52,761 nt of DNA from a virus. Lineage: Duplodnaviria > Caudoviricetes. This document shows positions 1,330 through 40,898 of this stretch, one piece after another (position 1 is the first letter of the stretch; the number at the start of each line of letters is the position of its first letter). The notes under the pieces were generated by a model, which ran no database searches, was not told the origin of the DNA, and was given only the letters and a program-made list of their open reading frames with translations. The DNA lies in the IMG/VR virus record IMGVR_UViG_3300014492_000001, positions 1-52,761 of that record, one strand, 5' to 3'. The position numbers and the translations under genes are program-made.

Positions 1330-1972
1330 GAAGCTCGATAACGCCACTCCCAGTCTCTTCCTAGATGGCCCTGGAGAATTCCTGGCTATGCAGCTTGCCG
1401 CTCAAATCAACCTCGAGCCCCACTTTAACGAGATCTTTCAGGGTTCGGTTTTCGACTACCAGAGAGAAGACATATCTTACCGAGAACTCCCCGCGCTGAG
1501 AATTTACACACTGGATTATACTAAGGAGCAGGAATCGCATTACATTAACGGAGACGTTCACGCTGACGTGATTTTTCCTCCTAACATCCGCAGAGAGAAT
1601 ATCGAGACGCTTTCTAGCCGGATCGCTTCTGCGCTTCTTCAACAGTTTCGTAGGCCGCCTTTCTTCGCAACGATGTGCGATCTCGTTCCTGGATTGAATG
1701 AGTTGGGTAAGGTCTTCAATATTAACAAAAGCATGGTCTTTCAAAACACGGAGCAAACCGATGAATGCCCCGTAGTCAAGATCACTTTAAATTTTCGATT
1801 GGACCTAAAGGTCTGGGACCAGTATCTTATTGATAATGGAAGAACTAAGGACGATCCTTTCGATGTGACTCTAAAGAACCTTAAGATTATCGCTGGGATT
1901 ATTCAGGCGATTCGCGAAGAGGTTGGAGAGGTTCCGCAGGACATCCAATTGGGGATTTTAGATAAAGTTTAA
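1319..1972 (+). CDS. Putative tail terminator/completion protein
   Basis: Position between neck and sheath; size. Confidence 0.5.
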   Translation: MVSEKLDNATPSLFLDGPGEFLAMQLAAQINLEPHFNEIFQGSVFDYQREDISYRELPALRIYTLDYTKEQESHYINGDVHADVIFPPNIRRENIETLSSRIASALLQQFRRPPFFATMCDLVPGLNELGKVFNINKSMVFQNTEQTDECPVVKITLNFRLDLKVWDQYLIDNGRTKDDPFDVTLKNLKIIAGIIQAIREEVGEVPQDIQLGILDKV

Positions 1973-1983
1973 GGGAGATTCAA

Positions 1984-3183
1984 ATGGCAGCGAATTTAAC
2001 CACTATCGGTTCACAGCTTACCCCAGGTACTCCGACGGAGATCACGTTTGCTCCAAACACTTCCCCGCCTGCTGCCGTAAACGCAGTTGTACTTATCGGT
2101 CGTCAATCCGCAAGTGCTGGCTCTGCCTCTGGAGCTAACTACGTACCAGTTCAAATCTCGAACGTAGCTGATCCAATTGCTTGCTCAGGTGAAGTCGCTG
2201 GTCTGTTCGGACAGGGCTCTGAAATGGCGAAGATGGTGATTGCAGCCGTTCAAGCAAATCAACTTCAAGGAACAACTTTCCCTCCTCTGACTGCGATCCC
2301 TCTCGCTTCTACGGATACGGATCACGGACAGGCTCTGGTCGCTGTGGATAAACTTCCTGGAATTGCATACGTGGTTTCCCCGTTCGATGCCAATACCCAG
2401 TCCCTCATGAATCCTTTGCTCGCAGAGACTACCGCGATGTCCTTGCCTCAGCGTGTGGATAACGGTCAGTATGGAACGATTGCAATTGCAGCAAATCAAA
2501 GCGCTACGACCTTCTCGTCCCTTACAAAGTACAACACTCCTTATGGTTCCTTTCAGTGGTTGCGTAACTCTGCACCGACTCAATTAAACGGTGAGATCGC
2601 TGCTTCTGTTGCGGCTCAACTCGCTGCGAATGCGGTTCCTTTCAACCCTGTTAAGAACCTTGTTATTCCAAACATTGTAGCTCCGTCCCAAGCGGATCAA
2701 ATCACTGTTGGAGCGGGAATGGATTCGGAAGGGGCTTTGGCTGCAGGTTGGTCCCCGCTCCGGCTTCTTTCGACCGGATCGGTGGCTCAGCTTCGTGCTA
2801 GAACTCTCCGCATCTTCCTCGCAGACGGTGTGACCCCTGTGACTGATTACTTCGACGTGATGGACTTTAACGTCCTGTTCTACTGGAGACAGACTCTAGT
2901 GACTCGTTATAACCAACCAGACTTCGCAAACGCTAAGGCGTCTCAAGGTCCTGGAAGCACGGGCCAGCTTCTTCTTTCGGAAGTCATTCGTCTCGGGTTC
3001 TTGTTTCAGACGAATGGAATGTTTCAAGGAATGGATCAAGCTGCGAAGAGCTTCTTGGTTCAACGAAACGCTACGGATCGCAGCCGCTTCGACGTGCTGA
3101 CTCCTGTAGACGTGATCCCGATCCTTGCAGTGATCGCAACCAATATTCAAGCCACTGCGGCTTACGACACCATTACTGTTTAA
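1984..3183 (+). CDS. Contractile tail sheath (Mu gpL-like, compact)
   Basis: 'VAGLFGQGSEMAKM' and C-terminal 'RNATDRSRFDVLTPVDVIP' are typical of Mu-like sheaths. Confidence 0.88.
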   Translation: MAANLTTIGSQLTPGTPTEITFAPNTSPPAAVNAVVLIGRQSASAGSASGANYVPVQISNVADPIACSGEVAGLFGQGSEMAKMVIAAVQANQLQGTTFPPLTAIPLASTDTDHGQALVAVDKLPGIAYVVSPFDANTQSLMNPLLAETTAMSLPQRVDNGQYGTIAIAANQSATTFSSLTKYNTPYGSFQWLRNSAPTQLNGEIAASVAAQLAANAVPFNPVKNLVIPNIVAPSQADQITVGAGMDSEGALAAGWSPLRLLSTGSVAQLRARTLRIFLADGVTPVTDYFDVMDFNVLFYWRQTLVTRYNQPDFANAKASQGPGSTGQLLLSEVIRLGFLFQTNGMFQGMDQAAKSFLVQRNATDRSRFDVLTPVDVIPILAVIATNIQATAAYDTITV

Positions 3184-3188
3184 GGAGA

Positions 3189-3695
3189 TTGATAGTGGTT
3201 TGTAATAGGTGCAGTTCAGATAAGCCAGAATCTAATTTTGGAACCTATTCAAACGGTAATGGTAAAGGTCGTATTTACACAAGAAAACAATGTCTTAAGT
3301 GCAGAACGGCCTTTAGGAATAAAGAAAAAAATTCGGAATGCTCTCTAAGATGTTGGAGGAAAAAGTTCTCTAAAAATAAAGAAGCTTGGAACTCGAAGGT
3401 AAGGGAATACAGATTAAAAAGAAAGCTATCTGGAAACCCAATCAAGAGAAACTGTGCTTCTGATAAATACAGGTCTAACTCTAGGATTAATATTTTTTTT
3501 CGGGCAGAGGTTAGAAGAATTTATGGAACGATTTGCTCTTACTGCTTCTTAGAGGCAAAAACCATAGATCATGTGGTCCCGTTAAATAAAGGCGGGTTAA
3601 ATGAGATTGAAAATCTCGTTCCAGCCTGTAACTCTTGTAATAGTTCAAAACAAGACCAGCACTTGACTTTTTGGCTGGCACGAAAGGCTGGGTAA
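3189..3695 (+). CDS. HNH endonuclease with Zn-finger N-terminus (likely start GTG 3195)
   Basis: CxxC...TIDHVVPLNKGG...NLVPACNSCNSSK; visibly AT-richer than flanking genes. Confidence 0.9.
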   Translation: MIVVCNRCSSDKPESNFGTYSNGNGKGRIYTRKQCLKCRTAFRNKEKNSECSLRCWRKKFSKNKEAWNSKVREYRLKRKLSGNPIKRNCASDKYRSNSRINIFFRAEVRRIYGTICSYCFLEAKTIDHVVPLNKGGLNEIENLVPACNSCNSSKQDQHLTFWLARKAG

Positions 3696-3699
3696 CTAT

Positions 3700-4116
3700 A
3701 CGGCGACTAAATACGCGGATCGCGCTTTTCTGAGTGTAAACGGTGCAAAGATCGCTGATCTTCAAAGCGCTACAATGAACCTGAACTACAACGCCAAGGC
3801 GGTTCCGAATATGACCCCAGACGGTTTTAATACTGGGTTCGTTCAAGGAAACTTAGATTGTGATATCGACTTTGAAATCGCAGTCGAGAATCTCAATGCC
3901 ACCCCGAAAATCGAAGAGCTTCCCTTCGATACGGCAGATGTCGCATTGAACTTCGTTTGCGGAGCTGACCAGTACATCTGTAGCGGTCTTTTCTGTAAAA
4001 CCATGAAAGAAGCAGCTTCTGGCATCGGTCAGGAAGCTAAAAAGAATTGGACCTTCGGGGCCCTAAAGGCAACAGATGCCGTGGGTAACTCCGTCTTGTT
4101 CAATTTAAGCCTGTAG
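3700..4116 (+). CDS. Tail tube protein, apparent non-canonical ACG start at 3700
   Basis: Sits between sheath and chaperone; frame is open upstream of ATG 3775 and reads (T)ATKYADRAFLSVNGAKIADLQS. Confidence 0.72.
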   Translation, partial: TATKYADRAFLSVNGAKIADLQSATMNLNYNAKAVPNMTPDGFNTGFVQGNLDCDIDFEIAVENLNATPKIEELPFDTADVALNFVCGADQYICSGLFCKTMKEAASGIGQEAKKNWTFGALKATDAVGNSVLFNLSL

Positions 4117-4123
4117 GTAGAAA

Positions 4124-4648
4124 ATGAAACCAACCCCGAATGAGTTTCCAAACCTTGCCCTAATCCGTCAGGGCGTAGATTACCGTTTTAAAGTAAAGCT
4201 GCGCGCTAAAGAACTAGAGATGCGCCCGCTCTCGGTCTCTGAAGAGGATCAGATAACCCAAGAAGTGGTTACCGAGATGGCTCGTCTCCCAGAGATTCAG
4301 AGGACTAGCTTAAGGCAGTCTCTTCTTCTCTCGATTAAGAAGCTGGAAAAGGCTCAGACCTCCGCTCCAGGCGAATATGATCCTGAAATATTTGCAGCGG
4401 AATTAAACCAGCTCACGCCTGGCGAGATTGAGTTTATCTTTAAAGAGTGGAATGCGGGTAACGACAAGCTAAATCCTATTCTCGACAAGATGCCGGTCAA
4501 AGACGTTGAGCTATGGGTCGAAGGATTAAAAAAAAATTCCAGCGACAGGGAGATGACCTTGATCGGATTATCTTTCTTTCAATTGGTAAATATCTGTCAC
4601 CACTTGCTAGCCCAGGAAGAATTACAAGCGGACAAATTACCTGGCTGA
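4124..4648 (+). CDS. Tail assembly chaperone (G)
   Basis: Between tube and tape measure; 'MRPLSVSEE'; contains slippery A9 run. Confidence 0.75.
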   Translation: MKPTPNEFPNLALIRQGVDYRFKVKLRAKELEMRPLSVSEEDQITQEVVTEMARLPEIQRTSLRQSLLLSIKKLEKAQTSAPGEYDPEIFAAELNQLTPGEIEFIFKEWNAGNDKLNPILDKMPVKDVELWVEGLKKNSSDREMTLIGLSFFQLVNICHHLLAQEELQADKLPG

Positions 4649-25525: not shown

Positions 25526-26256
25526 TGGCTAGCAAGTACGATGGCGCAACCCTCACGGTCGCAAACTGGGAGAAGTATAATCCCCGAAATGACGCTAAGG
25601 CTCACACCTGGTTTAGGATCTCAAATGACATGCCGTTCGGCCCGTCGTTTTTTAGGTTCAATTGTGAGCAACGTTGGATGTGGATCGTGATTCTCTCGCT
25701 AGTGTCGAAGAAAAAAGGTCAACCAATCGTCTGGGAGAGTGGTTTTATAGAGAATACTAACCACGTTTCGCCCTCAACTCAGGACCGCGCGATAACAATG
25801 TTCATTGATTACGGCATGTTAACTTTTGTAACTTCAAGTAACATGAAGTTACATGAAGTAACATTAAGTAACATTTTAGTCACGTGCCCTACAGACATAC
25901 AGACAAACAAACAAACACACGAACAAACGAAACCCGGGAACAGGAAAACTTCGTCGAACAAGTTCGACTATTCAGTTGGATTTTTAGAAGTCTATGACGC
26001 ATACCCACGCAGAGAGGGCAAACAAGCGGGTTATAAAATCTACCAGAGAGAAATAATCACCCAGGAGCTTCGAACGGATTTACTCACCGCAATACAAAAC
26101 TATCGAAAACGAAAGTCAGGAACCGAAACTAGGTTCTTACTCATGTTTGGAACTTTCATGAACCAGTGGAAAGACTGGCTCGATGCCGAAACTGGTTCTT
26201 CTCAAGAAATTAAAAAGAAAGTCCCCTTTTACGATTTTCGGGAGACCTCCGAATGA
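25525..26256 (+). CDS. Phage replication initiator
   Basis: 'NWEKYN..WFR' N-terminus; 'FLEVYDAYPRREGK...TFMNQWKDWL' C-terminus; internal iterons. Confidence 0.75.
   Translation: MASKYDGATLTVANWEKYNPRNDAKAHTWFRISNDMPFGPSFFRFNCEQRWMWIVILSLVSKKKGQPIVWESGFIENTNHVSPSTQDRAITMFIDYGMLTFVTSSNMKLHEVTLSNILVTCPTDIQTNKQTHEQTKPGNRKTSSNKFDYSVGFLEVYDAYPRREGKQAGYKIYQREIITQELRTDLLTAIQNYRKRKSGTETRFLLMFGTFMNQWKDWLDAETGSSQEIKKKVPFYDFRETSE
25818..25933. repeat. Putative replication origin: six 10-bp iteron-like repeats plus an A/C-rich tract
   Basis: GTTAACTTTT GTAACTTCAA GTAACATGAA GTTACATGAA GTAACATTAA GTAACATTTT, then ACAGACATACAGACAAACAAACAAAC. Confidence 0.7.
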
Positions 26257-27101
26257 GTCAAGGTTTATACCGGATGCACGACGTTACCCCAAGCGGGATG
26301 ATTTCAGTGAACCCCAAAGAAGCTCACGAATGGAATAAGCAAGGATTTGGAATATTTGTATCGGTAAATTCTTTCAAGGGACCGAGACGCAAAGAAAATC
26401 TAAAACGGATCGTAGCCTGGGCAGTGGATCTTGACACTGGAACCAAATCAGAGATGGAGATTAAAATTCAAAGTGGGCTGACTCCTTCTTTGGTCGTAGA
26501 GAGTAAGCGTGGATACCACGTCTGGTGGAGATCGAAGGATGGGGAACCGCAATACTGGGACGCAGTAATGTTAGATCGATTAGTTCCGTTTTATGGGGCT
26601 GATAAGAACGCGAGAGATATCTGCAGAGTTCTCAGAATGCCGGGATTTAATCACATGAAAAATCCAGCAGAGCCATTTTTAATAAAAAAAGTTTTCGAGT
26701 ACAACGTATCTTACACGCAAAACCAGATGGCGAATTTCTATCCTGACGTTTCAAAACCTGAACGTGAAGAATTTAAACGAGAGATTACGGAACTGAAAAC
26801 AGGAGCTAACTTCTGGGAGAAAGTTTGGAGACTCGACTGCATTGATGGGCTTGAGAGACTTTCTGGAAGTCCCTACGTGAACAACGAGACTTATTCTTTC
26901 AGTAGAAATGCAAACGGGAAGTTTAATATTTCAGTCAACGGGAAGGGCACAAGTTGTTTTATAGATCATGAGTTTAGAATCGGATCTTCCTCAAAAGGCG
27001 GTCCTACGCTCTTTAGTTGGCTTCGTTGGTACGGACACAGTGGGAAAGAAGCAGTAAATATTTTAAAAGAAATGTTTCCAGAACTTGAGACATCCAAATG
27101 A
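26253..27101 (+). CDS. AEP/RepB'-type DNA primase
   Basis: 'AVDLD', 'VVESKRGYHVWW', 'DICRVLRMPGF'. Confidence 0.82.
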   Translation: MSQGLYRMHDVTPSGMISVNPKEAHEWNKQGFGIFVSVNSFKGPRRKENLKRIVAWAVDLDTGTKSEMEIKIQSGLTPSLVVESKRGYHVWWRSKDGEPQYWDAVMLDRLVPFYGADKNARDICRVLRMPGFNHMKNPAEPFLIKKVFEYNVSYTQNQMANFYPDVSKPEREEFKREITELKTGANFWEKVWRLDCIDGLERLSGSPYVNNETYSFSRNANGKFNISVNGKGTSCFIDHEFRIGSSSKGGPTLFSWLRWYGHSGKEAVNILKEMFPELETSK

Positions 27102-28177
27102 CAGATCAGAAAAAATTTAGCACGAACGTACTCGACGAAATAAAAAAGCTGAGCGAGCGATTAAAAACAGAAGCCGCAGGGAGACAGCCCCAGAAGCCGC
27201 TCAGTTTTGGAATTAAATATTTGGATGACTGTCTTGGAGGAATTAGAACAAGCGACTTTATTGTTCTCGGATCGAAGACCGGAGTAGGAAAGACCCAGGC
27301 AGCAACCATTTGTGCCCTTGCAAACGCAGATCACAAGAGGATTCATTTCTTTGCACTCGAAGCGGAAAAGGACGAAATTGAGCGCCGGATCAAATACGCG
27401 ATGGTTGCTCATCACGTTTACGGATCAATGAAGAGCAAATTCAAAGACAAGCATTTCAACTACATGGATTGGATGAATGGAAAGTTTAACGAAATCTTAG
27501 ATCCACTCAATCCAGAATTCGACGCTCTCTTGTCAGAAAAATATCCAGGGTTAAATACTTACTACCAAGGCAAGAGCAACTTGAACGAAAACAACATCTC
27601 GCAGGTAATTCTTTCGATTCAAGACCAGACGGATTTAATCATTATCGATCATCTGCATTACTTCGACTTTGAAAACGAGAATGAGAACCTCGCTATGAAA
27701 ACTTTAGTCAAGAATCTCAAAACACTTTCGCAAGACTGTTCCAAGCCTATTTTGATGCTGGCACACCTCAGAAAATCAGACAGGAGATTTCAATCGATTG
27801 TTCCAAACATCGAAGATTTTCACGGCTCCAGCGACATCACCAAGATAGCAACGAAGGTCGTTTTGCTCGCACCCTCAGACGGGGAGACCGGAGATCTCTA
27901 CAAATACCCGACTTATATTTCAGCCGTAAAAAACAGGTATGATTCATCGCGGGCCAGGTATACGGCTGTCTGCGCCTACGATGTGAAAAGGAACGGATAT
28001 GAAGAAAAGTACCACATCGGCAAGGTTAACTCCGCGCAGGATGAGTTCAAAGAATGTGAAGAAAAAGAGATCCCCTACTGGGCGGTTAGCGCAAACAGGC
28101 AGGCTAGAGAAGTACCTAAAGTGGAAACTAAAGACCGGCGTAGTATTCAAAGATCATTCTATGAACCGAATGATTAG
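27098..28177 (+). CDS. DnaB-like replicative helicase
   Basis: Walker A GSKTGVGKT, 'FALE', 'IIIDHLH', 'GSSDI'. Confidence 0.88.
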   Translation: MTDQKKFSTNVLDEIKKLSERLKTEAAGRQPQKPLSFGIKYLDDCLGGIRTSDFIVLGSKTGVGKTQAATICALANADHKRIHFFALEAEKDEIERRIKYAMVAHHVYGSMKSKFKDKHFNYMDWMNGKFNEILDPLNPEFDALLSEKYPGLNTYYQGKSNLNENNISQVILSIQDQTDLIIIDHLHYFDFENENENLAMKTLVKNLKTLSQDCSKPILMLAHLRKSDRRFQSIVPNIEDFHGSSDITKIATKVVLLAPSDGETGDLYKYPTYISAVKNRYDSSRARYTAVCAYDVKRNGYEEKYHIGKVNSAQDEFKECEEKEIPYWAVSANRQAREVPKVETKDRRSIQRSFYEPND

Positions 28178-28287: not shown

Positions 28288-29196
28288 ATGGAAAACAAAG
28301 AATACGATTTCAAAAAATATCTTAAATCTTGGAAGGAAGAAAAGTTCGTCGAGAACCTTCCTGAAGAGATCTACCACGCAGAAGAGGCCCTCAGCTCCGG
28401 TCAGCTTTCAGCGATTATCAATCCCGATTACGGAATTCATCGTCTCTTCGCAGAAAAGACACTAGGCTTAAAAAAAGAAGCCACTGAGGCGCAAAGCTTT
28501 GGGAGCAAGTTTCATAAGGCAGTTTTAGAGCGCGACGAATTTCTAAGACGCTACAAAGTTGTTCCAGAATTTACAGGCCTAACGAAAGATGGAAGACCCT
28601 CCACACAATCAGCCGAAGCAAAAGCAAAGAAGGCAGCCTGGTACGCGGACCAGCCCAAAGATGCGATTATCGTAGAGAGCGCCGAAGAACGGGACCAACT
28701 TTCTGGAATGCTTGAATCACTTTTGAAACACAAAGAGGCGGCGGACTTGTTGAAGGGCGGGATTACAGAGCTTTCGGGGTTCTTTAATTTGAACGGCTTT
28801 CGATGCAGAACTAGGGTCGATATTTTCCGCGAAGATATTAATACGATCATCGATCTCAAGACGACTAGGAATGCCTACAGTCAGGAGTTCGAGAAGCAGA
28901 TAGTAAAGAATTTTTATTTCATCCAAGCGTGGCTCTACCTAGCGGGAGCGATCAAGATTACGAAGCGCAAGAACATGAAATTCAAGTTCATCGCGGTCGA
29001 AAAAGAACCGCCGTATCTCGTTACGGTTCAGGAGATCGGAGAATCTATGTTGACCTGCGGAGATATTCTAGCGAACCAAGCGATGTCTAAACTCAATGCT
29101 GCGATCAACAGCGGAGTTTGGCTCCCAGAACCCCAGATGACCTACATGGCAGAAGCCCCAGAATGGATGCTCAAGAAATTGGAAGGACAAGTATGA
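28288..29196 (+). CDS. RecE/ExoVIII-like PD-(D/E)xK exonuclease (DUF3799-like)
   Basis: 'YHAEEALSSG', 'GSKFH', 'RTRVD...IIDLKT', 'FIAVEKEPPY'. Confidence 0.88.
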   Translation: MENKEYDFKKYLKSWKEEKFVENLPEEIYHAEEALSSGQLSAIINPDYGIHRLFAEKTLGLKKEATEAQSFGSKFHKAVLERDEFLRRYKVVPEFTGLTKDGRPSTQSAEAKAKKAAWYADQPKDAIIVESAEERDQLSGMLESLLKHKEAADLLKGGITELSGFFNLNGFRCRTRVDIFREDINTIIDLKTTRNAYSQEFEKQIVKNFYFIQAWLYLAGAIKITKRKNMKFKFIAVEKEPPYLVTVQEIGESMLTCGDILANQAMSKLNAAINSGVWLPEPQMTYMAEAPEWMLKKLEGQV

Positions 29197-30350
29197 CCAC
29201 GCAAGGAGTAACAGATGCAACTAGGGGAAAGATTTTGGTCAAAGGTAAAGAAAACGGAGACGTGTTGGATATGGACGTCGGCGAAAAACAAGGCGGGGTA
29301 CGGGTGTTATCAGATTTATCCAAAAACGCACCTATCTCACAGGCTCAGCTACCAGGAAAAACACGGAGCAATTCCACAGAAAATTGGAGTTCTGCACCAG
29401 TGCGACAACCCTCCTTGCGTGAATCCGGACCATCTGTTCCTGGGGGATCAACTAGCAAACATGAAGGATGCGGCTCAGAAGGGGAGGGTCAGAAACGGCC
29501 ACATGAACCAGAAGGAATGCCACAGAGGGCACCTACTATCGGGGAGCAATATCTACACGAGCAAAAAGGGAATGAGAATGTGCCGCAAGTGCAGCAGAAA
29601 ATGGAAGGCAGAGTACTACCGGAAGACAGTAAATCCAAACGCCAAACCATACAAGCGCAGGGGAACGGAGTACTAGTTGGAACTAGTTTTGAGGATCAAT
29701 ACCGAATTGCTAAGGCATACCACGCCTCTGGTTTAATGCCGAAATCTTTAAACTCAACTGAGAAGGTGCTAGTTGCCATGCAACTTTGCAGGGAGCTTGG
29801 CCTTCCAGTGATCTCTTCTCTCGGAAAGATTATGGTTGTGAACCAAGTCCCAGCGATATTCGGAGACCTACCTCTGGCGCTAGTTTTAAGCTCTGGGAAG
29901 GTGGAGGATTATCGAGATGATTTTGAACAAAAAGACGGTAAGCCTTACGCTTCTACGTTTACGGTGAAGAGGAAAAACCTATCACCAGTTATTCGAAGAT
30001 TCACGCTTGACGACGCAAAGAACGCCGGTCTTTTCAGGAATGATATTTGGAGCAAATACCCACAGAGAATGCTCCAATGCCGAGCCAGGGCTTGGGCACT
30101 TAAAGACGCATTTCCAGATGTTCTCTCGGGCGTCTTTATCGCAGAATACGACTTTAACACAGTCGTAGAGCAAGCGAGCGAATCAACACCATCTACGAGA
30201 GCAATGGATCGCCTTAACTCTCTCGCAGAACCAGATCCAATTGTTTTACCGAAAGAAGAAATTGAAATGAGCAGTGAACCAGAGTTCGATCCGAGCTTTG
30301 ACATAATAGGAGAAGAGAATGAGCCAGCAGCCCCTAGAATTGGAAGTTGA
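29193..30350 (+). CDS. RecT/Bet-like single-strand annealing protein; N-terminal part overprinted with an HNH gene
   Basis: 'WSKYPQRMLQCRARAWALKDAFPDVLSG'; ATG 29193 overlaps the exonuclease stop (ATGA). Confidence 0.82.
   Translation: MTTQGVTDATRGKILVKGKENGDVLDMDVGEKQGGVRVLSDLSKNAPISQAQLPGKTRSNSTENWSSAPVRQPSLRESGPSVPGGSTSKHEGCGSEGEGQKRPHEPEGMPQRAPTIGEQYLHEQKGNENVPQVQQKMEGRVLPEDSKSKRQTIQAQGNGVLVGTSFEDQYRIAKAYHASGLMPKSLNSTEKVLVAMQLCRELGLPVISSLGKIMVVNQVPAIFGDLPLALVLSSGKVEDYRDDFEQKDGKPYASTFTVKRKNLSPVIRRFTLDDAKNAGLFRNDIWSKYPQRMLQCRARAWALKDAFPDVLSGVFIAEYDFNTVVEQASESTPSTRAMDRLNSLAEPDPIVLPKEEIEMSSEPEFDPSFDIIGEENEPAAPRIGS
29215..29676 (+). CDS. HNH endonuclease nested in another frame of recT
   Basis: 'ERFWSKV..TETCWIW', 'VLHQCDNPPCVNPDHLFLG', 'CHRGH'; SD AGGAG. 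Confidence 0.92.
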   Translation: MQLGERFWSKVKKTETCWIWTSAKNKAGYGCYQIYPKTHLSHRLSYQEKHGAIPQKIGVLHQCDNPPCVNPDHLFLGDQLANMKDAAQKGRVRNGHMNQKECHRGHLLSGSNIYTSKKGMRMCRKCSRKWKAEYYRKTVNPNAKPYKRRGTEY

Positions 30351-31150: not shown

Positions 31151-31497
31151 GCACGATGGAACCTGATCTAGTAGAAAGTACGGTTAAGAAATGGGAAGAG
31201 CGTCAAAAGAACAAGCCGGAGTCTATGCTTGCCCAAAACGAGGAAGAAATCGCCGCCCAAAGAAAACGAAACAGGAGCGCGACGATCAGCGCAGCGAAAA
31301 GCTTGTTCTGGAAAGAGCTAGGAAAGGGGTCTGTGCTGCGTGCGGCAAAATTGGCGGTCTTGATCCTGATCACCAAGTTACAAGAGGTGCCGGCGGTGGG
31401 GAGGAGTATTGGAACATTATGCCTTTATGTCGGAAAGAGCATGTACAAAGGCACTCTAAAGGGGTCCTCTGGCTCTCGGAAAAATACCCAGGAGTAA
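31147..31497 (+). CDS. Hypothetical protein overlapping the HNH gene
   Basis: GTGA-coupled start; charged helical N-terminal half. Confidence 0.4.
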   Translation: MSTMEPDLVESTVKKWEERQKNKPESMLAQNEEEIAAQRKRNRSATISAAKSLFWKELGKGSVLRAAKLAVLILITKLQEVPAVGRSIGTLCLYVGKSMYKGTLKGSSGSRKNTQE

Positions 31498-31562
31498 AGG
31501 CTTGGCTAATTCAAAATGGTTGGGAGTTTTGTGATTTACGAAAACGTTGGGTGCATAATTAA
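31191..31562 (+). CDS. HNH-like nuclease (HNHc/DUF968-like)
   Basis: 'CAACG...DPDHQVTRGAGGG....NIMPLCRKEH..RH'. Confidence 0.8.
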   Translation: MGRASKEQAGVYACPKRGRNRRPKKTKQERDDQRSEKLVLERARKGVCAACGKIGGLDPDHQVTRGAGGGEEYWNIMPLCRKEHVQRHSKGVLWLSEKYPGVKAWLIQNGWEFCDLRKRWVHN

Positions 31563-31862: not shown

Positions 31863-32534
31863 ATGCAAGCACAAGAGCTTAAAAATATTTTAGAGAAACA
31901 TCGCAAATGGGTGATGGGCGAGACCGGCGGCGAGAGGGCGGACCTCCGCTCTGCGGACCTCCGCTCTGCGAACCTCCGCTCTGCGAACCTCCGCTCTGCG
32001 GACCTCAGCTATGCGGACCTCAGCTATGCGGACCTCAGCTATGCGAACCTCAGCTCTGCGGACCTCCGCTCTGCGGACCTCCGCTCTGCGGACCTCAGCT
32101 ATGCGAACCTCAGCTCTGCGGACCTCCGCTATGCGAACCTCCGCTCTGCGGACCTCAAAGAAATTAAAGAGGACTTTTTCAAAGTTCTTTCGATTTCTAA
32201 GAATGAGGTGGTTGGACTTTACGATGCTCTGATGCGCGGAAAGATAGATGGCTCTCAGTATCAAGGGGAGTGTGCGTGTCTCGTTGGAACCGTCGCGAAT
32301 ATTAGAAACGAGAAATACGACAACCTTGGAATTGATCTCAGACCCAATTCGGATCGTCTCGCTGAGAGATGGTTCCTCGGAATATCTAAGGGCGACATTC
32401 CAGCGAATAACGAGGTTTCCCGCGTAACCGTGTCTTGGGCAGAAGAGTTTATGACTGAGAATGGCCTGTCTGTTCCTCAGTACAAGCTTATTTCTAATCT
32501 TGAGCGTCTGGAACTTTTCAAAACGCATCTTTAA
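31863..32534 (+). CDS. Pentapeptide-repeat protein
   Basis: About 15 A(D/N)Lxx repeats (15-bp DNA unit, ~31937-32157); SD AGGAGG. Confidence 0.92.
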
Positions 32535-37795: not shown

Positions 37796-38055
37796 GCAAG
37801 GTTCTTTGGCGAGTGATTTACAAACAAGGAGCGCGTCTTAAGGATCGCTGCTTTAGTGAGGAAGCTGAAGCGAGAGAGTTCGTGCTGAAGCAACGCAAGT
37901 ACCTGAACGACTACCGATTGGAGAAGATCAGCCACATTCCTATTTGGGACCGATGGCTCCGCACTCGAATCACTTGGTTCAATCTTGAAGTTCCAATCCT
38001 CTTTATCGTTCTTTGTGCATTCATGGGCTACGGCCTCTGGGAGATCCTAAAATGA
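37792..38055 (+). CDS. Small protein with a C-terminal TM segment
   Basis: 'VPILFIVLCAFMGYGLW'. Confidence 0.55.
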   Translation: MSKVLWRVIYKQGARLKDRCFSEEAEAREFVLKQRKYLNDYRLEKISHIPIWDRWLRTRITWFNLEVPILFIVLCAFMGYGLWEILK

Positions 38056-39128
38056 TTAACGTTCTACTTATTATCCCGAATAGAAACGACGCGACCTCAC
38101 TCTATCGAGGCATGGGACCATTCGCCTTACTGCGGAAAGAATTTAATTTTAACATAGTAACCTCTGACACGGTGGACGAGTCGATCTTAGATCTCGTGGA
38201 CTTCGTGTTCATGCAGAGACCCAGTACGGACGGGCACGCCAAAGTAGCGGAGATGTGCAAGATCAACGGAACACCGCTCTGGATTGATTACGACGACTTC
38301 CTATTCGAAGTTCCTCAAGATAACCCAGCTTACGACGCATACATGAAGCGCGAAGTGCATAACAACATCGTTAAGATTATTCGGATGGCAGACGTGGTGA
38401 CCGTATCCACGGAACAGCTCAAGCGTTGCCTTCAACCTAAAGGCCACGTTTTGAATGAGCGAGTCTACGTGGTTCACAACGCTCTTCACGATAAGTACTT
38501 GCGTCTGAAGCAGCCGTTTAAATTTAAGCCGCACATCAACTGGCGCGGATCAAGAACGCACATGCGAGACATCATGGAGTACGCACCAGAGGTTGCGGAG
38601 TTTGCTAACAAGCATCAGGAGTCCACGTTTACCTTCATTGGGGATAACCCGTGGTACCTGACTCAGAACATGCCTCGCAAGCAGGCCATCGTTGTACCTC
38701 CAATGGGAATAAACGATTACTTCCAGTTCATCACGAAGACGAACCCATCTATTCAGATCGTGCCGCTTCACGACTCCATGTTTAACCGCTGCAAGTCGAA
38801 CATCGCTTGGATCGAAGCTTCTCTCGCTGGGGCAATCTGTATCGCTCCGAGATGGCAGGAGTGGGAAGATAAACCCGGATGCCTCACCTATTCCACACCA
38901 GAGGAATTTAGGGACTGCCTCGAATACGCTATCGCTAATCCAGATGAGATGGCACAGCAGCACGCGCTTGGGTTCGAATACATTCAGAAGAATCTATTGC
39001 TCTCGAACATTAATGTGTTTCGTAATGTACTGATGCAATGTCTTTACGCCTTAGTTCGCGGAGCAGAAGTAACATTTCCAAGGGACGGAGAAGCGCTCGA
39101 GGAAGAAGCTGTCATGGAGCTGGAATGA
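38052..39128 (+). CDS. Glycosyltransferase, GT-B fold (GT4-like)
   Basis: 'IDYDD', 'ADVVTVST..L', 'PLHDSMFNRCKSNIAWIEASLAG'. Confidence 0.85.
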   Translation: MINVLLIIPNRNDATSLYRGMGPFALLRKEFNFNIVTSDTVDESILDLVDFVFMQRPSTDGHAKVAEMCKINGTPLWIDYDDFLFEVPQDNPAYDAYMKREVHNNIVKIIRMADVVTVSTEQLKRCLQPKGHVLNERVYVVHNALHDKYLRLKQPFKFKPHINWRGSRTHMRDIMEYAPEVAEFANKHQESTFTFIGDNPWYLTQNMPRKQAIVVPPMGINDYFQFITKTNPSIQIVPLHDSMFNRCKSNIAWIEASLAGAICIAPRWQEWEDKPGCLTYSTPEEFRDCLEYAIANPDEMAQQHALGFEYIQKNLLLSNINVFRNVLMQCLYALVRGAEVTFPRDGEALEEEAVMELE

Positions 39129-40108
39129 AAGTTCTAATCACAGGATGGGCTGGGTTCATCGGCTCGAACCTTACTCGGATGATCCTCAGTGATACTGACT
39201 GGGATATCTACGGAATGGACTCCCACACCTACGCAGCAAGGCCGCTCTGGGTTTACACGGTGGTCCAGTCGAACCAAAAACTTAAAGATAGATTCTTCGC
39301 TCTGCCGAATGATATCCGCACATTCCCCCTCGAGGGCTTAGTATTCGATGTGGTCATACACCTTGCCGCTGAGTCCCATGTTTGTAGATCAATAGAGGGA
39401 CCAGAGAAGTTCATCGATACGAATATCCTTGGGACGTTCAATCTTCTCGAGGGTCTTCGCAGGTCAAAAAGCAAAGCAATCTTCCATCACGTATCAACAG
39501 ACGAGGTTTACGGTGTCGCGCAAGAAGGATCAAAGTTTAAAGAAAGCACTCCGTACGATCCAAGGAGTCCTTATTCAGCAAGTAAAGCAGCAAGCGACCA
39601 CCTCGTATCCGCTTACCACCACACCTACGGGCTCAATACGAGAATCACGAACTGCTCGAACAACTTCGGTGCGAACCAGCATTCAGAGAAGCTCATCCCC
39701 AAGACGATCAAGAGAATCCTCAAAGGAGAGCCGGTCACTCTCTACGGACCAGGCAATCAAGTTAGAGACTGGATCTGGGTTGACGATCACTGCCGAGGAA
39801 TCCTCGCAGCTATTGCTAATGGCAGCCCGGGAGGTACTTATTTACTTGGGGGAGAGTGTGAAAGAACAAATCTCGAAGTCGTACAAGACTGCTGGATTGC
39901 TTGCCAAGAAGTCGCGGAAGAACAAAAGATCAAACTCCCGACGGACCTCGTAATAGAACATACAAACGACCGCCCGACCGATGACCAGCGTTACGCCATT
40001 GATTGCTCACATGCCAAGAAGATGCTCAACTGGAAGCCGTTACACGAGCTGTACTTCGAAAGGTTGAAGGAGACCGTTAGATGGTATCTGAAACACGAGC
40101 CAACGTAA
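39125..40108 (+). CDS. rmlB: dTDP-glucose 4,6-dehydratase
   Basis: GWAGFIG, HLAAESHV, STDEVYG, YSASK, 'RDWIWVDDH'. Confidence 0.92.
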   Translation: MKVLITGWAGFIGSNLTRMILSDTDWDIYGMDSHTYAARPLWVYTVVQSNQKLKDRFFALPNDIRTFPLEGLVFDVVIHLAAESHVCRSIEGPEKFIDTNILGTFNLLEGLRRSKSKAIFHHVSTDEVYGVAQEGSKFKESTPYDPRSPYSASKAASDHLVSAYHHTYGLNTRITNCSNNFGANQHSEKLIPKTIKRILKGEPVTLYGPGNQVRDWIWVDDHCRGILAAIANGSPGGTYLLGGECERTNLEVVQDCWIACQEVAEEQKIKLPTDLVIEHTNDRPTDDQRYAIDCSHAKKMLNWKPLHELYFERLKETVRWYLKHEPT

Positions 40109-40356
40109 TCGTAGACGCGGACTTCGTAGAATCGGTTTCGGACGTAAAGGACATCACGCTTGCTTATGTTAGAGCAGCGATGGAAGCAGGGGACGATAAC
40201 AAAGAGACCTACCTTCGGGGAATGCTTCGAGGGGTTGAGATCTGCATGGAGAACTACCAGATATGTTTAGACGCGATGGCGAAGGATCAGAGAGAGCAGG
40301 CGCTGAAAGATCTTCAAACGAATCTCAACTTAACCACAATGGACAGCAGTACTTAG
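40081..40356 (+). CDS. Hypothetical protein
   Basis: ORF between rmlB and rmlC, overlapping both. Confidence 0.5.
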   Translation: MVSETRANVIVDADFVESVSDVKDITLAYVRAAMEAGDDNKETYLRGMLRGVEICMENYQICLDAMAKDQREQALKDLQTNLNLTTMDSST

Positions 40357-40898
40357 TTCACGGGTTCGGTAAAGGCGGGCCCAAGCTTATTACCTTACCC
40401 AGGTATATCGACGATCGCGGCTCATTCATGGAGAGCTTCAACAAGAGGGTGTTTGAACTCTTAGCGCTACCTACGGAATTCCCACAAGACAATATAAGTG
40501 AATCTAAGGCGAACGTGATTCGCGGGATGCACCTACAGAAGAACAACCCCCAAGGGAAACTCGTTACCGCGATCCGTGGGCACATTCAGGATGTATGTAT
40601 TGATCTTCGACCTGGCGAGACCTTCGGCCAAACCTACTCAGTAAAGCTCGGTCCTACGAAGGAAGGCTTTAGACAGTTCTTCTACATCCCTCCAGGGTTC
40701 GCTCACGGGTTCAGAAGTCTGACTGATTGCATCGTTCAATACAAATGCACCACTCTTTACGACAAGGAGTCTGATGGTGGGATTAACCCAATGGAGTCAG
40801 GAATAGACTGGGGATTAAAAGAAGAACAAGGCGTGACGATCTCCGAGAAGGATCGAATGCTGCCATCCCTGCTGGACTACTACAAAGCTTGCCATTAG
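40263..40898 (+). CDS. rmlC: dTDP-4-dehydrorhamnose 3,5-epimerase
   Basis: 'DDRGSFMES', 'IRGMHLQ', 'QGKLV', 'PPGFAHGF', 'YKC'. Confidence 0.93.
   Translation: MFRRDGEGSERAGAERSSNESQLNHNGQQYLVHGFGKGGPKLITLPRYIDDRGSFMESFNKRVFELLALPTEFPQDNISESKANVIRGMHLQKNNPQGKLVTAIRGHIQDVCIDLRPGETFGQTYSVKLGPTKEGFRQFFYIPPGFAHGFRSLTDCIVQYKCTTLYDKESDGGINPMESGIDWGLKEEQGVTISEKDRMLPSLLDYYKACH

Follow-up and report, generated by a model that had tools for sequence, protein, structure and literature searches.

How a phage can keep recT in use when a second gene lies wholly within its reading frame is the question raised by the recombination locus of virus record IMGVR_UViG_3300014492_000001 (IMG/VR; Duplodnaviria, Caudoviricetes). 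The whole stretch analyzed, 52,761 nucleotides (nt) and referred to here as the window, is a 52.8-kb record with a G+C content of 48.7%, and within it an HNH endonuclease gene of 462 bp sits inside a 385-codon recT frame. An earlier note on this DNA described a recT start coupled to the end of the upstream exonuclease gene and a recT frame without stops across the entire HNH gene, and the sequence bears all of this out. The recT ATG at 29193 shares letters with the exonuclease TGA at 29194-29196 (ATGA), the recT frame is open already from 29091 and ends at the stop at 30350, the HNH ATG at 29215 lies 22 nt downstream of the recT ATG, and the HNH gene ends with TAG at 29674-29676. We consider it likely that this homing-type HNH gene is dual coded with recT and that RecT is translated through it from ATG 29193.

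The recT frame acquires a stop only where an HNH codon ending in T comes before a codon starting with AA, AG, or GA, so the number of T third positions in that context tests for stop avoidance. In the window HNH gene, T ends none of the 50 codons that precede AA, AG, or GA codons, against 19 of 103 elsewhere (one-sided Fisher test, P = 0.0003). Synonymous shuffles of the gene have a mean of 4.6 stops in the recT frame, and the probability of having none is 0.0014, a conservative value in that within-gene shuffling retains the low content of T at third positions of this HNH gene. Codons drawn from window usage give 9.8 stops on average, and none of 5,000 draws is stop free. The second alternative frame contains 8 stops in the window HNH gene and 8 to 18 across the four embedded HNH genes considered here. 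The -1-frame stop rate is 0.0585 per codon across 52 open reading frames (ORFs) picked in the window, a set that includes one wrong-frame pick (39429-39953). That ORF was also considered as a further long open -1 frame and was rejected, since it is a wrong-frame ORF inside the dehydratase gene at 39038-40108.

The same pattern is found at three other loci, two with recT as the host gene (L049 and L057) and one with a family-A DNA polymerase gene (L015). T precedes AA, AG, or GA codons at 0 of 39 positions in L049, 0 of 45 in L057, and 0 of 66 in L015; the four loci together have 0 of 200 such positions, compared with 79 of 469 elsewhere (Fisher test, P = 7e-14). Shuffling of each gene's own codons gives probabilities of a stop-free frame of 0.0088 for L049 and 0.0024 for L057, and for L015 none of 5,000 shuffles is stop free. 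The HNH proteins of L049 and L057 are 43-50% identical to that of the window, a level at which synonymous sites have long been saturated, yet the frame is stop free at each locus. Chance is rejected as the explanation: the host frame is kept open by selection.

A wider survey covered 174 loci with a homologous HNH gene. Seven of these lack a stop in the host-type frame (the window, L049, L087, L015 and L106, which are on one contig, L110, and L166), and 77 have at least 10 stops. L110 and L166, as well as L045 with a single stop, were rejected as cases, as they have G+C contents of 0.64-0.67 and readouts that resemble off-frame junk. At L087 (2474-5866), the HNH gene (3501-3947) lies inside a stop-free -1-frame stretch of 1,130 codons with a G+C content of 0.54. 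The flanks there resemble low-complexity phage proteins, and a new protein may begin right after the HNH gene, so that one host ORF or two may be involved.

The HNH protein matches PF13392 (HNH_3) with 31.0 bits against a cutoff of 24.8, PF05551 weakly, and phrog_826 ("HNH endonuclease") with an E value of 1.4e-34. Residues H61, C63, D64, N65, C68, H73, N82, and H96 are invariant across the four embedded HNH proteins (alignment A2), and we take them to be the catalytic His...Asn...His residues and the Cys/His metal ligands. Residues 147-347 of the recT frame match phrog_561 (RecT-like) at 1.8e-19, and 157 homologues were found; PF03837 is precomputed on many homologues with 40-63% identity, and P0125 and P0127 match this family. 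Invariant columns begin at G159 (alignment A1). The predicted structure follows the same division: in an AlphaFold2 model based on a 26-row alignment, residues 1-150 have block-mean predicted local distance difference test (pLDDT) values of 42-58, with no helix or strand before residue 166, and residues 151-320 have block means of 77-98. Helix 166-178 is conserved and confidently modeled.

Comparison with recT relatives free of the HNH gene, a check proposed in the earlier note, was made on 120 listed RecT homologues, which are numbered with a P. Seven of them (P0002, P0003, P0004, P0005, P0010, P0016, and P0018) have 96-219 amino acids (aa) before the core, and all seven extensions resemble the window readout, that is, the HNH gene read in the host frame. 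The other 112 have at most 81 aa before the core, and two of these show weak readout matches (E values of 0.015 and 3.8). The likeness can be followed to the residue level, as VRQPSLRES in the host-frame readout is the shifted-frame reading of the HNH motif HQCDNPPCVNP. At the DNA level, the recT ORF of L049 (2932-4053, 373 aa) fully contains an HNH gene (2996-3460) with the same +1 offset as in the window and no stops. In L057, which matches P0016, the HNH gene (2963-3436) occupies the exonuclease-coupled start, and the recT-frame ORF (3040-4014) opens inside it, overlapping 409 of its 474 nt. In the window and L049, the HNH stop falls within the stretch that encodes the conserved RecT motif G-V-L-V-G; in L057 it is five residues further in. 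A PD-(D/E)XK/DUF3799 gene is directly upstream of recT in the window, and the gene order is identical in L049 and L057.

A conventional counterpart of the embedded form also exists. In L054 (1126-2285) and L055, a more distant recT is immediately preceded by an HNH gene of this family; the overlap is 193 nt, and the -1 frame of the HNH gene carries 6-8 stops. A nucleotide search of the exonuclease-recT block against GenBank phages gave no match, and a protein search with the 385-aa frame gave 232 records that all align to residues 171-369 at <60% identity, none covering at least 80% of the frame. A cultured phage with the embedded HNH-recT arrangement was thus not found by either search, and scans of viral contigs with a single RecT protein and with P0005 had no finds.

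The host gene is not always recT. In L015, a 230-aa HNH gene of this family (2923-3615) is embedded at a +1 offset in an 888-aa family-A DNA polymerase (PolA) ORF (1839-4505, on the contig shared with L106), with no stops in 230 codons and a G+C content of 0.49. In comparison with a solved PolA structure, query residues 344-580 stand in place of about 21 residues. The L015 HNH gene is therefore a true internal in-frame insertion, and a restart of translation cannot rescue the enzyme.

A profile of the four host-frame readouts (A4) was searched against 1.84 billion representative proteins and matched 47 of them at E ≤ 1e-3; 23 of the 47 were covered by the Pfam analysis. Eight are RecT-like, and in the five of these that were checked the core begins at residue 156-174; a further eight are PolA proteins, in which the match falls between the exonuclease and polymerase domains (residues ~385-577 in the eight cluster representatives). 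Two are long proteins without a Pfam family, and 21 of the remaining 24 are at most 260 aa long. Among these matches, the embedded HNH gene was seen in DNA for P0121, which is identical to the L049 ORF, and P0016 (L057), and it is presumed for the others. Five further matches carry other domains: P0160 (PD-(D/E)XK), P0142 (metallophosphatase), P0159 and P0146 (UvrD-type helicases), and P0143 (GNAT). P0160 and P0142 both have a C-terminal extension, and P0146 additionally carries an intein. On the sequences, these five may represent further host genes or run-on gene calls. The window readout by itself gave no match at E ≤ 0.01 when a set of 5.8 billion proteins was searched for longer proteins.

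The presence of the HNH gene varies among close RecT relatives, and HNH-bearing rows are interspersed with HNH-free rows. On a tree of the RecT core with 71 rows (P0002-P0070, the window, and L049, with P0071-P0120 left out), the nine HNH-bearing rows are clustered but do not form one clade; they require 5 changes, against a mean of 8.6 after shuffling, and 1 of 500 shuffles is as low. This distribution would fit either repeated gain or repeated loss. It is this disjunct pattern on the RecT tree that suggests mobility of the nuclease, which may home to recT. The tree of the HNH proteins (154 rows, FastTree) is poorly resolved. The five embedded HNH proteins need five changes, equal to shuffles, and the tree thus says nothing firm on one versus several origins; L049 and L057 fall within one starred three-row set.

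Direct repeats mark the ends of the HNH gene in the window. The earlier note was correct that GGAGTA occurs at 29205-29210 and 29667-29672, 462 nt or exactly 154 codons apart, and the pair proves to be part of a longer imperfect repeat with 16 of 20 matches (29205-29224 and 29667-29686). Based on the window-wide rate for pairs of 20-mers (28 in 20.9 million), chance would be expected to produce 0.0011 such repeats within a 23 x 36 box at the HNH ends. Each copy falls on sequence held under constraint for another reason, the left one on the HNH N terminus M-Q/K-L and the right one on the RecT motif G-V-L-V-G. The repeat is real and may be a scar of insertion. The picture of an insert bounded by repeats inside recT holds for the window but not always for the relatives, e.g., L057, and no comparable flanking repeat is listed for L049 or L015. 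A second imperfect repeat (29174-29198 and 29596-29620; 19 of 25 matches, spacing of 422, out of frame) connects the recT ribosome-binding and start region with the region of an internal ATG at 29601. This 25-nt repeat overlaps the part of the HNH gene that encodes its C terminus, a part conserved in L049, and is therefore probably due to chance.

For the production of RecT, we propose the following sequence of events. A homing-type HNH_3 gene would have settled in the +1 frame in the variable 5' part of recT, directly before the conserved core; the element stands immediately upstream of the first conserved core motif, and that motif may be its target as well. The HNH protein would be made from its own strong ribosome-binding site (AAGGAG followed by ATG 29215), and ribosomes starting at the original, exonuclease-coupled ATG 29193 would simply read on through the HNH gene in the recT frame to make RecT. 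In the resulting 385-aa RecT, residues 1 to ~158 would be a disordered by-product and the remainder the normal RecT core, and selection would purge those HNH codon choices that create TAA, TAG, or TGA in the recT frame. With the recT frame kept stop free, the element needs neither RNA splicing nor protein splicing. The start scan is consistent with this proposal, in that ATG 29193 has both the Shine-Dalgarno-like GGAAGGA and the ATGA coupling, and no Shine-Dalgarno match precedes any of the candidates at 29580, 29589, and 29601. We infer that the long RecT is really made and active. Of the three routes to RecT named in the earlier note, read-through with a disordered stretch of about 154 aa is thus the favored one. 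An RNA-library contig (X14) covers 29108-29346 with one differing letter and another (X16) covers 28871-29031, although DNA may occur in such libraries.

Several observations weigh against translation through the HNH gene or limit its reach. The 385-aa product is a prediction from sequence and structure modeling. The window RecT matches no Pfam family at E ≤ 0.01 and is named by PHROGs and homologues, and the gene caller of the source chose a 204-aa RecT (P0001) that starts at ATG 29736. The four loci possibly share ancestry and are then not fully independent, and a stop test confined to the part of the frame upstream of the internal start candidates is only moderately significant (P = 0.005-0.02). 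In-frame GTG, TTG, or ATG codons occur 75-105 nt before the HNH stop at all three recT loci known as DNA. In L057, the open frame begins inside the HNH gene, so that complete overprinting is not universal, and P0016, P0018, and P0003 are called with starts within the readout, a hint of partial overprinting as in L057. Lastly, the embedded HNH gene in 11 RecT and 8 PolA proteins is deduced from likeness of the readout alone.

These internal start codons are the basis of the alternative that survives best, which we nevertheless regard as unlikely: RecT would initiate only at ATG 29601, for a product of 249 aa, or at GTG 29580 or 29589, the HNH gene would be an ordinary free-standing gene overlapping the 5' end of recT by ~75-100 nt, and the open frame upstream would have no function. 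Candidates at comparable positions in L049 (3355 and 3364) and L057 (3352-3361), as well as the conventional arrangement in L054 and L055, fit this explanation; the candidates arise from conserved Cys codons of the HNH zinc motif. However, they lack the Shine-Dalgarno match that is found for both 29193 and 29215. Internal initiation also leaves unexplained why the recT frame is stop free upstream of the candidates at the three recT loci (P = 0.021, 0.018, and 0.005), and it does not account for PolA, in which the HNH gene lies in mid-enzyme. The N-terminal motif [DNT]F[ED][EN]F is retained upstream of the readout in 4 of 12 HNH-bearing RecT relatives, compared with 7 of 112 HNH-free ones, although this is weak evidence. 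A restart at ATG 29601, also named in the earlier note, is thus disfavored but keeps a small chance of being correct.

It is much less probable that the recT gene is broken or fused, with either an inactivated recT (a 204-aa remnant from 29736 or nothing) or a -1 frameshift near 29670 that joins HNH and RecT into one protein. The 204-aa call in the source annotation agrees with the former, and ribosomes shifting by -1 at the 3' end of the HNH gene would pass from one frame into the other. On the other hand, the RecT core is conserved and predicted to be well folded, and a protein starting at 29736 would lose the conserved helix 166-178. Between 29601 and 29736, the recT frame contains no ATG, GTG, or TTG codon, and the 204-aa call is probably a gene-caller artifact forced by the overlap with the HNH gene. 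Stop avoidance across the whole HNH gene would be unexplained, and inspection by eye found no slippery heptamer of the form X XXY YYZ in 29640-29676. Contigs of DNA from another study match the junction (29539-29801; X3 record 10) with no differing letters, which makes a sequencing error unlikely.

HNH genes are frequently carried by group I introns and inteins, and removal of the HNH block as an mRNA intron or a protein intein was considered on that ground; we find it highly improbable. Rfam gave no matches at the gathering score for the window, L015, L049, or L057, although a novel ribozyme would be beyond such tools, and the HNH ORF fills the whole 462-nt interval, with no room for a ribozyme core. 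With respect to an intein, there is no Pfam family on the 385-aa frame, the HNH gene is out of frame, and the readout is predicted to be disordered; the absence of intron and intein signatures stated in the earlier note is borne out. Moreover, introns do not require an open host frame. A joined form, HNH free or spliced, was not seen among the contigs of four public runs, which is weak evidence because only contigs were covered. The runs carry labels of peat and permafrost metagenomes, to which no weight was given.

Translational bypass, in which ribosomes would take off at GGA 29205, land at GGA 29667, and skip the HNH gene to make a product of ~231 aa, is the least credible route even though matched GGA-GTA codons stand exactly 154 codons apart within a 16-of-20 repeat that is unlikely there by chance, since the take-off codon is followed by GTA instead of a stop, the gap is 462 nt compared with ~50 nt for gene 60 of phage T4, the RNA at 29196-29255 has a minimum free energy of -4.4 kcal/mol (z score of +0.69, with 149 of 200 shuffles folding at least as well), hopping has no need of the stop-free gap that is nonetheless kept, L057 lacks the upstream take-off part, and L049 and L015 have no flanking repeat listed, so that the hopping between GGA codons suggested in the earlier note is unsupported.

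The HNH-recT locus is surrounded by a replication and recombination block (Table 1). The exonuclease gene upstream matches PF12684 (DUF3799) at 3.7e-23, PF12705 (PDDEXK_1) at 3.8e-6, and phrog_412 (exonuclease VIII) at 1.9e-56. Past the recombination block, a small ORF (31191-31562) without a Pfam family at E ≤ 0.001 resembles, by eye, a second and different HNH-type nuclease (C..C ... H ... C..H), and L049 has a similar ORF (3980-4294) at the equivalent relative position. It is followed by a gene for a pentapeptide-repeat protein at 31863-32534 (PF00805, 5e-21), where long ORFs on the opposite strand and in other frames are driven by the repeats and probably spurious. Farther downstream, 38013-40898 is a sugar-nucleotide gene cluster in which a 371-aa ORF without a Pfam family precedes the genes for an NAD-dependent 4,6-dehydratase (39038-40108; PF16363, 1.9e-71) and a dTDP-4-dehydrorhamnose 3,5-epimerase (40263-40898; PF00908, 4e-44).

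Table 1. Features of the HNH-recT locus and adjoining genes, in window coordinates.
Feature	Position	Strand	Basis
RepB-type primase-like gene	26253-27101		
DnaB-like helicase gene	27098-28177		
PD-(D/E)XK exonuclease gene preceding and paired with recT, RecE / exonuclease VIII-like	28288-29196	+	PF12684, PF12705, phrog_412
Shine-Dalgarno-like GGAAGGA, 5 nt upstream of recT ATG 29193	29181-29187	+	Sequence and Shine-Dalgarno scan
Long recT reading frame, 385 codons, stop free, start coupled to exonuclease stop	29193-30350	+	
First 158 codons of the recT frame (HNH gene read in the host frame), predicted disordered	29193-29666	+	
AAGGAG, HNH Shine-Dalgarno site, 6 nt before HNH ATG, within recT codons 4-6	29203-29208	+	
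Left copy of imperfect direct repeat, spans HNH Shine-Dalgarno site and start	29205-29224	+	
HNH_3 endonuclease gene (+1 to the recT frame), 153 aa	29215-29676	+	
In-frame ATG, candidate internal start, 249-aa product, no Shine-Dalgarno match	29601-29603	+	
RecT-like single-strand annealing core (~residues 159-320 of 385), then acidic C-terminal tail	29667-30350	+	
Right copy of imperfect direct repeat, spans HNH stop and first RecT core codons	29667-29686	+	
ATG of the source's own RecT gene call (P0001, 204 aa)	29736-29738	+	

Taken beyond this locus, we lean slightly toward the view that HNH_3 genes form a widespread and largely unnoticed guild that is translated through in phage replication and recombination ORFs, where the genes lie in a shifted frame and stops are purged from the host frame. 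As hosts, RecT and PolA are certain, and helicases, PD-(D/E)XK exonucleases, and others are possible; in each case the host enzyme would carry the element as a disordered loop or linker. If this is true, selfish nuclease genes would have, besides introns and inteins, a third means of occupying an essential gene harmlessly. Such elements are prone to be missed, as gene callers drop the HNH gene or truncate the host gene, as happened here with the 204-aa RecT and its lost helix, and the lack of T at third positions before AA, AG, or GA codons provides a statistical signature for detecting them. As a small annealing protein with an easy recombineering readout, RecT is a tractable test case, which could show how large a disordered insertion is tolerated and how one mRNA yields products from two frames.

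Among known systems, the bypass element of T4 gene 60 reportedly comes with a mobA homing endonuclease cassette, a gap of ~50 nt, and a stop after the take-off codon. The likeness lies in a mobile nuclease, an interruption of the host ORF that is overcome at translation, and matched GGA codons at both ends; the differences here are the lack of a stop after take-off, the 462-nt gap, the lack of a predicted take-off hairpin, and an open gap that avoids stops. The mobE genes in nrdA of Aeromonas phage Aeh1 and in T4 are said to be free-standing homing endonuclease genes, either splitting a host gene or adjoining it. They share with the window an HNH-family nuclease gene within or beside a conserved DNA metabolism gene, without an intron or intein, but the hosts there are split into pieces or untouched, whereas here there is a single uninterrupted host frame. 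Inteins overlapped by an out-of-frame nuclease ORF are similar in that the overlapped host-frame sequence is translated; they differ in that the intein splices, while here there is no intein domain and the readout is disordered.

The closest counterpart is the out-of-frame "hidden" HNH (ShiLan domain) in mycobacteriophage DNA methylases (Arsenault, Gosselin, Gogarten 2025, Genes 16:178; PMC11855218), which, in the available text of that article, leaves the host frame open, shows no signature of an intron or intein, has a loose predicted readout, and is joined by a second case in Pacc40 gp60. One more methylase case is annotated in a genome announcement, as far as its available text goes (PMC12613952). 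The earlier note's central idea, a mobile-type nuclease that is dual coded so that the host gene stays unbroken, is thus upheld by the significant stop avoidance and by recurrence in L049, L057, and PolA of L015, and it matches an arrangement of a described kind (PMC11855218). As described there, the two arrangements share an HNH gene wholly in an alternative frame of a stop-free host ORF with no intron or intein, a host-frame readout predicted to be loose or disordered, and a disjunct distribution among relatives of the host gene. In both, the first part of the insert is similar to the sequence that directly follows the insertion site (here the 16-of-20 repeat), and a free-standing HNH gene upstream of the host gene also exists (Tiff81 and Sashimi there, L054 and L055 here) (PMC11855218). 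They differ in their hosts, which are methylases there and RecT and PolA (L015) here, and in the frame, which is given as the "third frame" (+2) there and is a +1 offset here. The HNH gene there starts with GTG without a ribosome-binding site and is proposed to be leaderless, compared with ATG and a strong Shine-Dalgarno site here, and the window element is N terminal, four codons after the host start, and not inside a conserved domain (PMC11855218). In its available text, the article has no mention of RecT and mentions a polymerase once, in the reference list, although its survey tables may list further hosts (PMC11855218). Our literature search for out-of-frame HNH genes in recT or PolA hosts found none.

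What is new here, then, are the RecT and PolA hosts, the unrelated phages of moderate G+C content, the +1 offset, the HNH start led by a Shine-Dalgarno site, and, for the window, the N-terminal position. If translation through the HNH gene is correct, the arrangement described in 2025 from two actinophage methylases would be one that selfish HNH genes use generally in unrelated moderate-GC phages. The G+C contents of 49-56% here differ from the GC-rich actinophage DNA of the methylase cases, and it is because our loci are not GC-rich that the open frame can be demonstrated statistically. Compared with the known methylase systems, this adds a quantitative demonstration of selection holding the host frame open.

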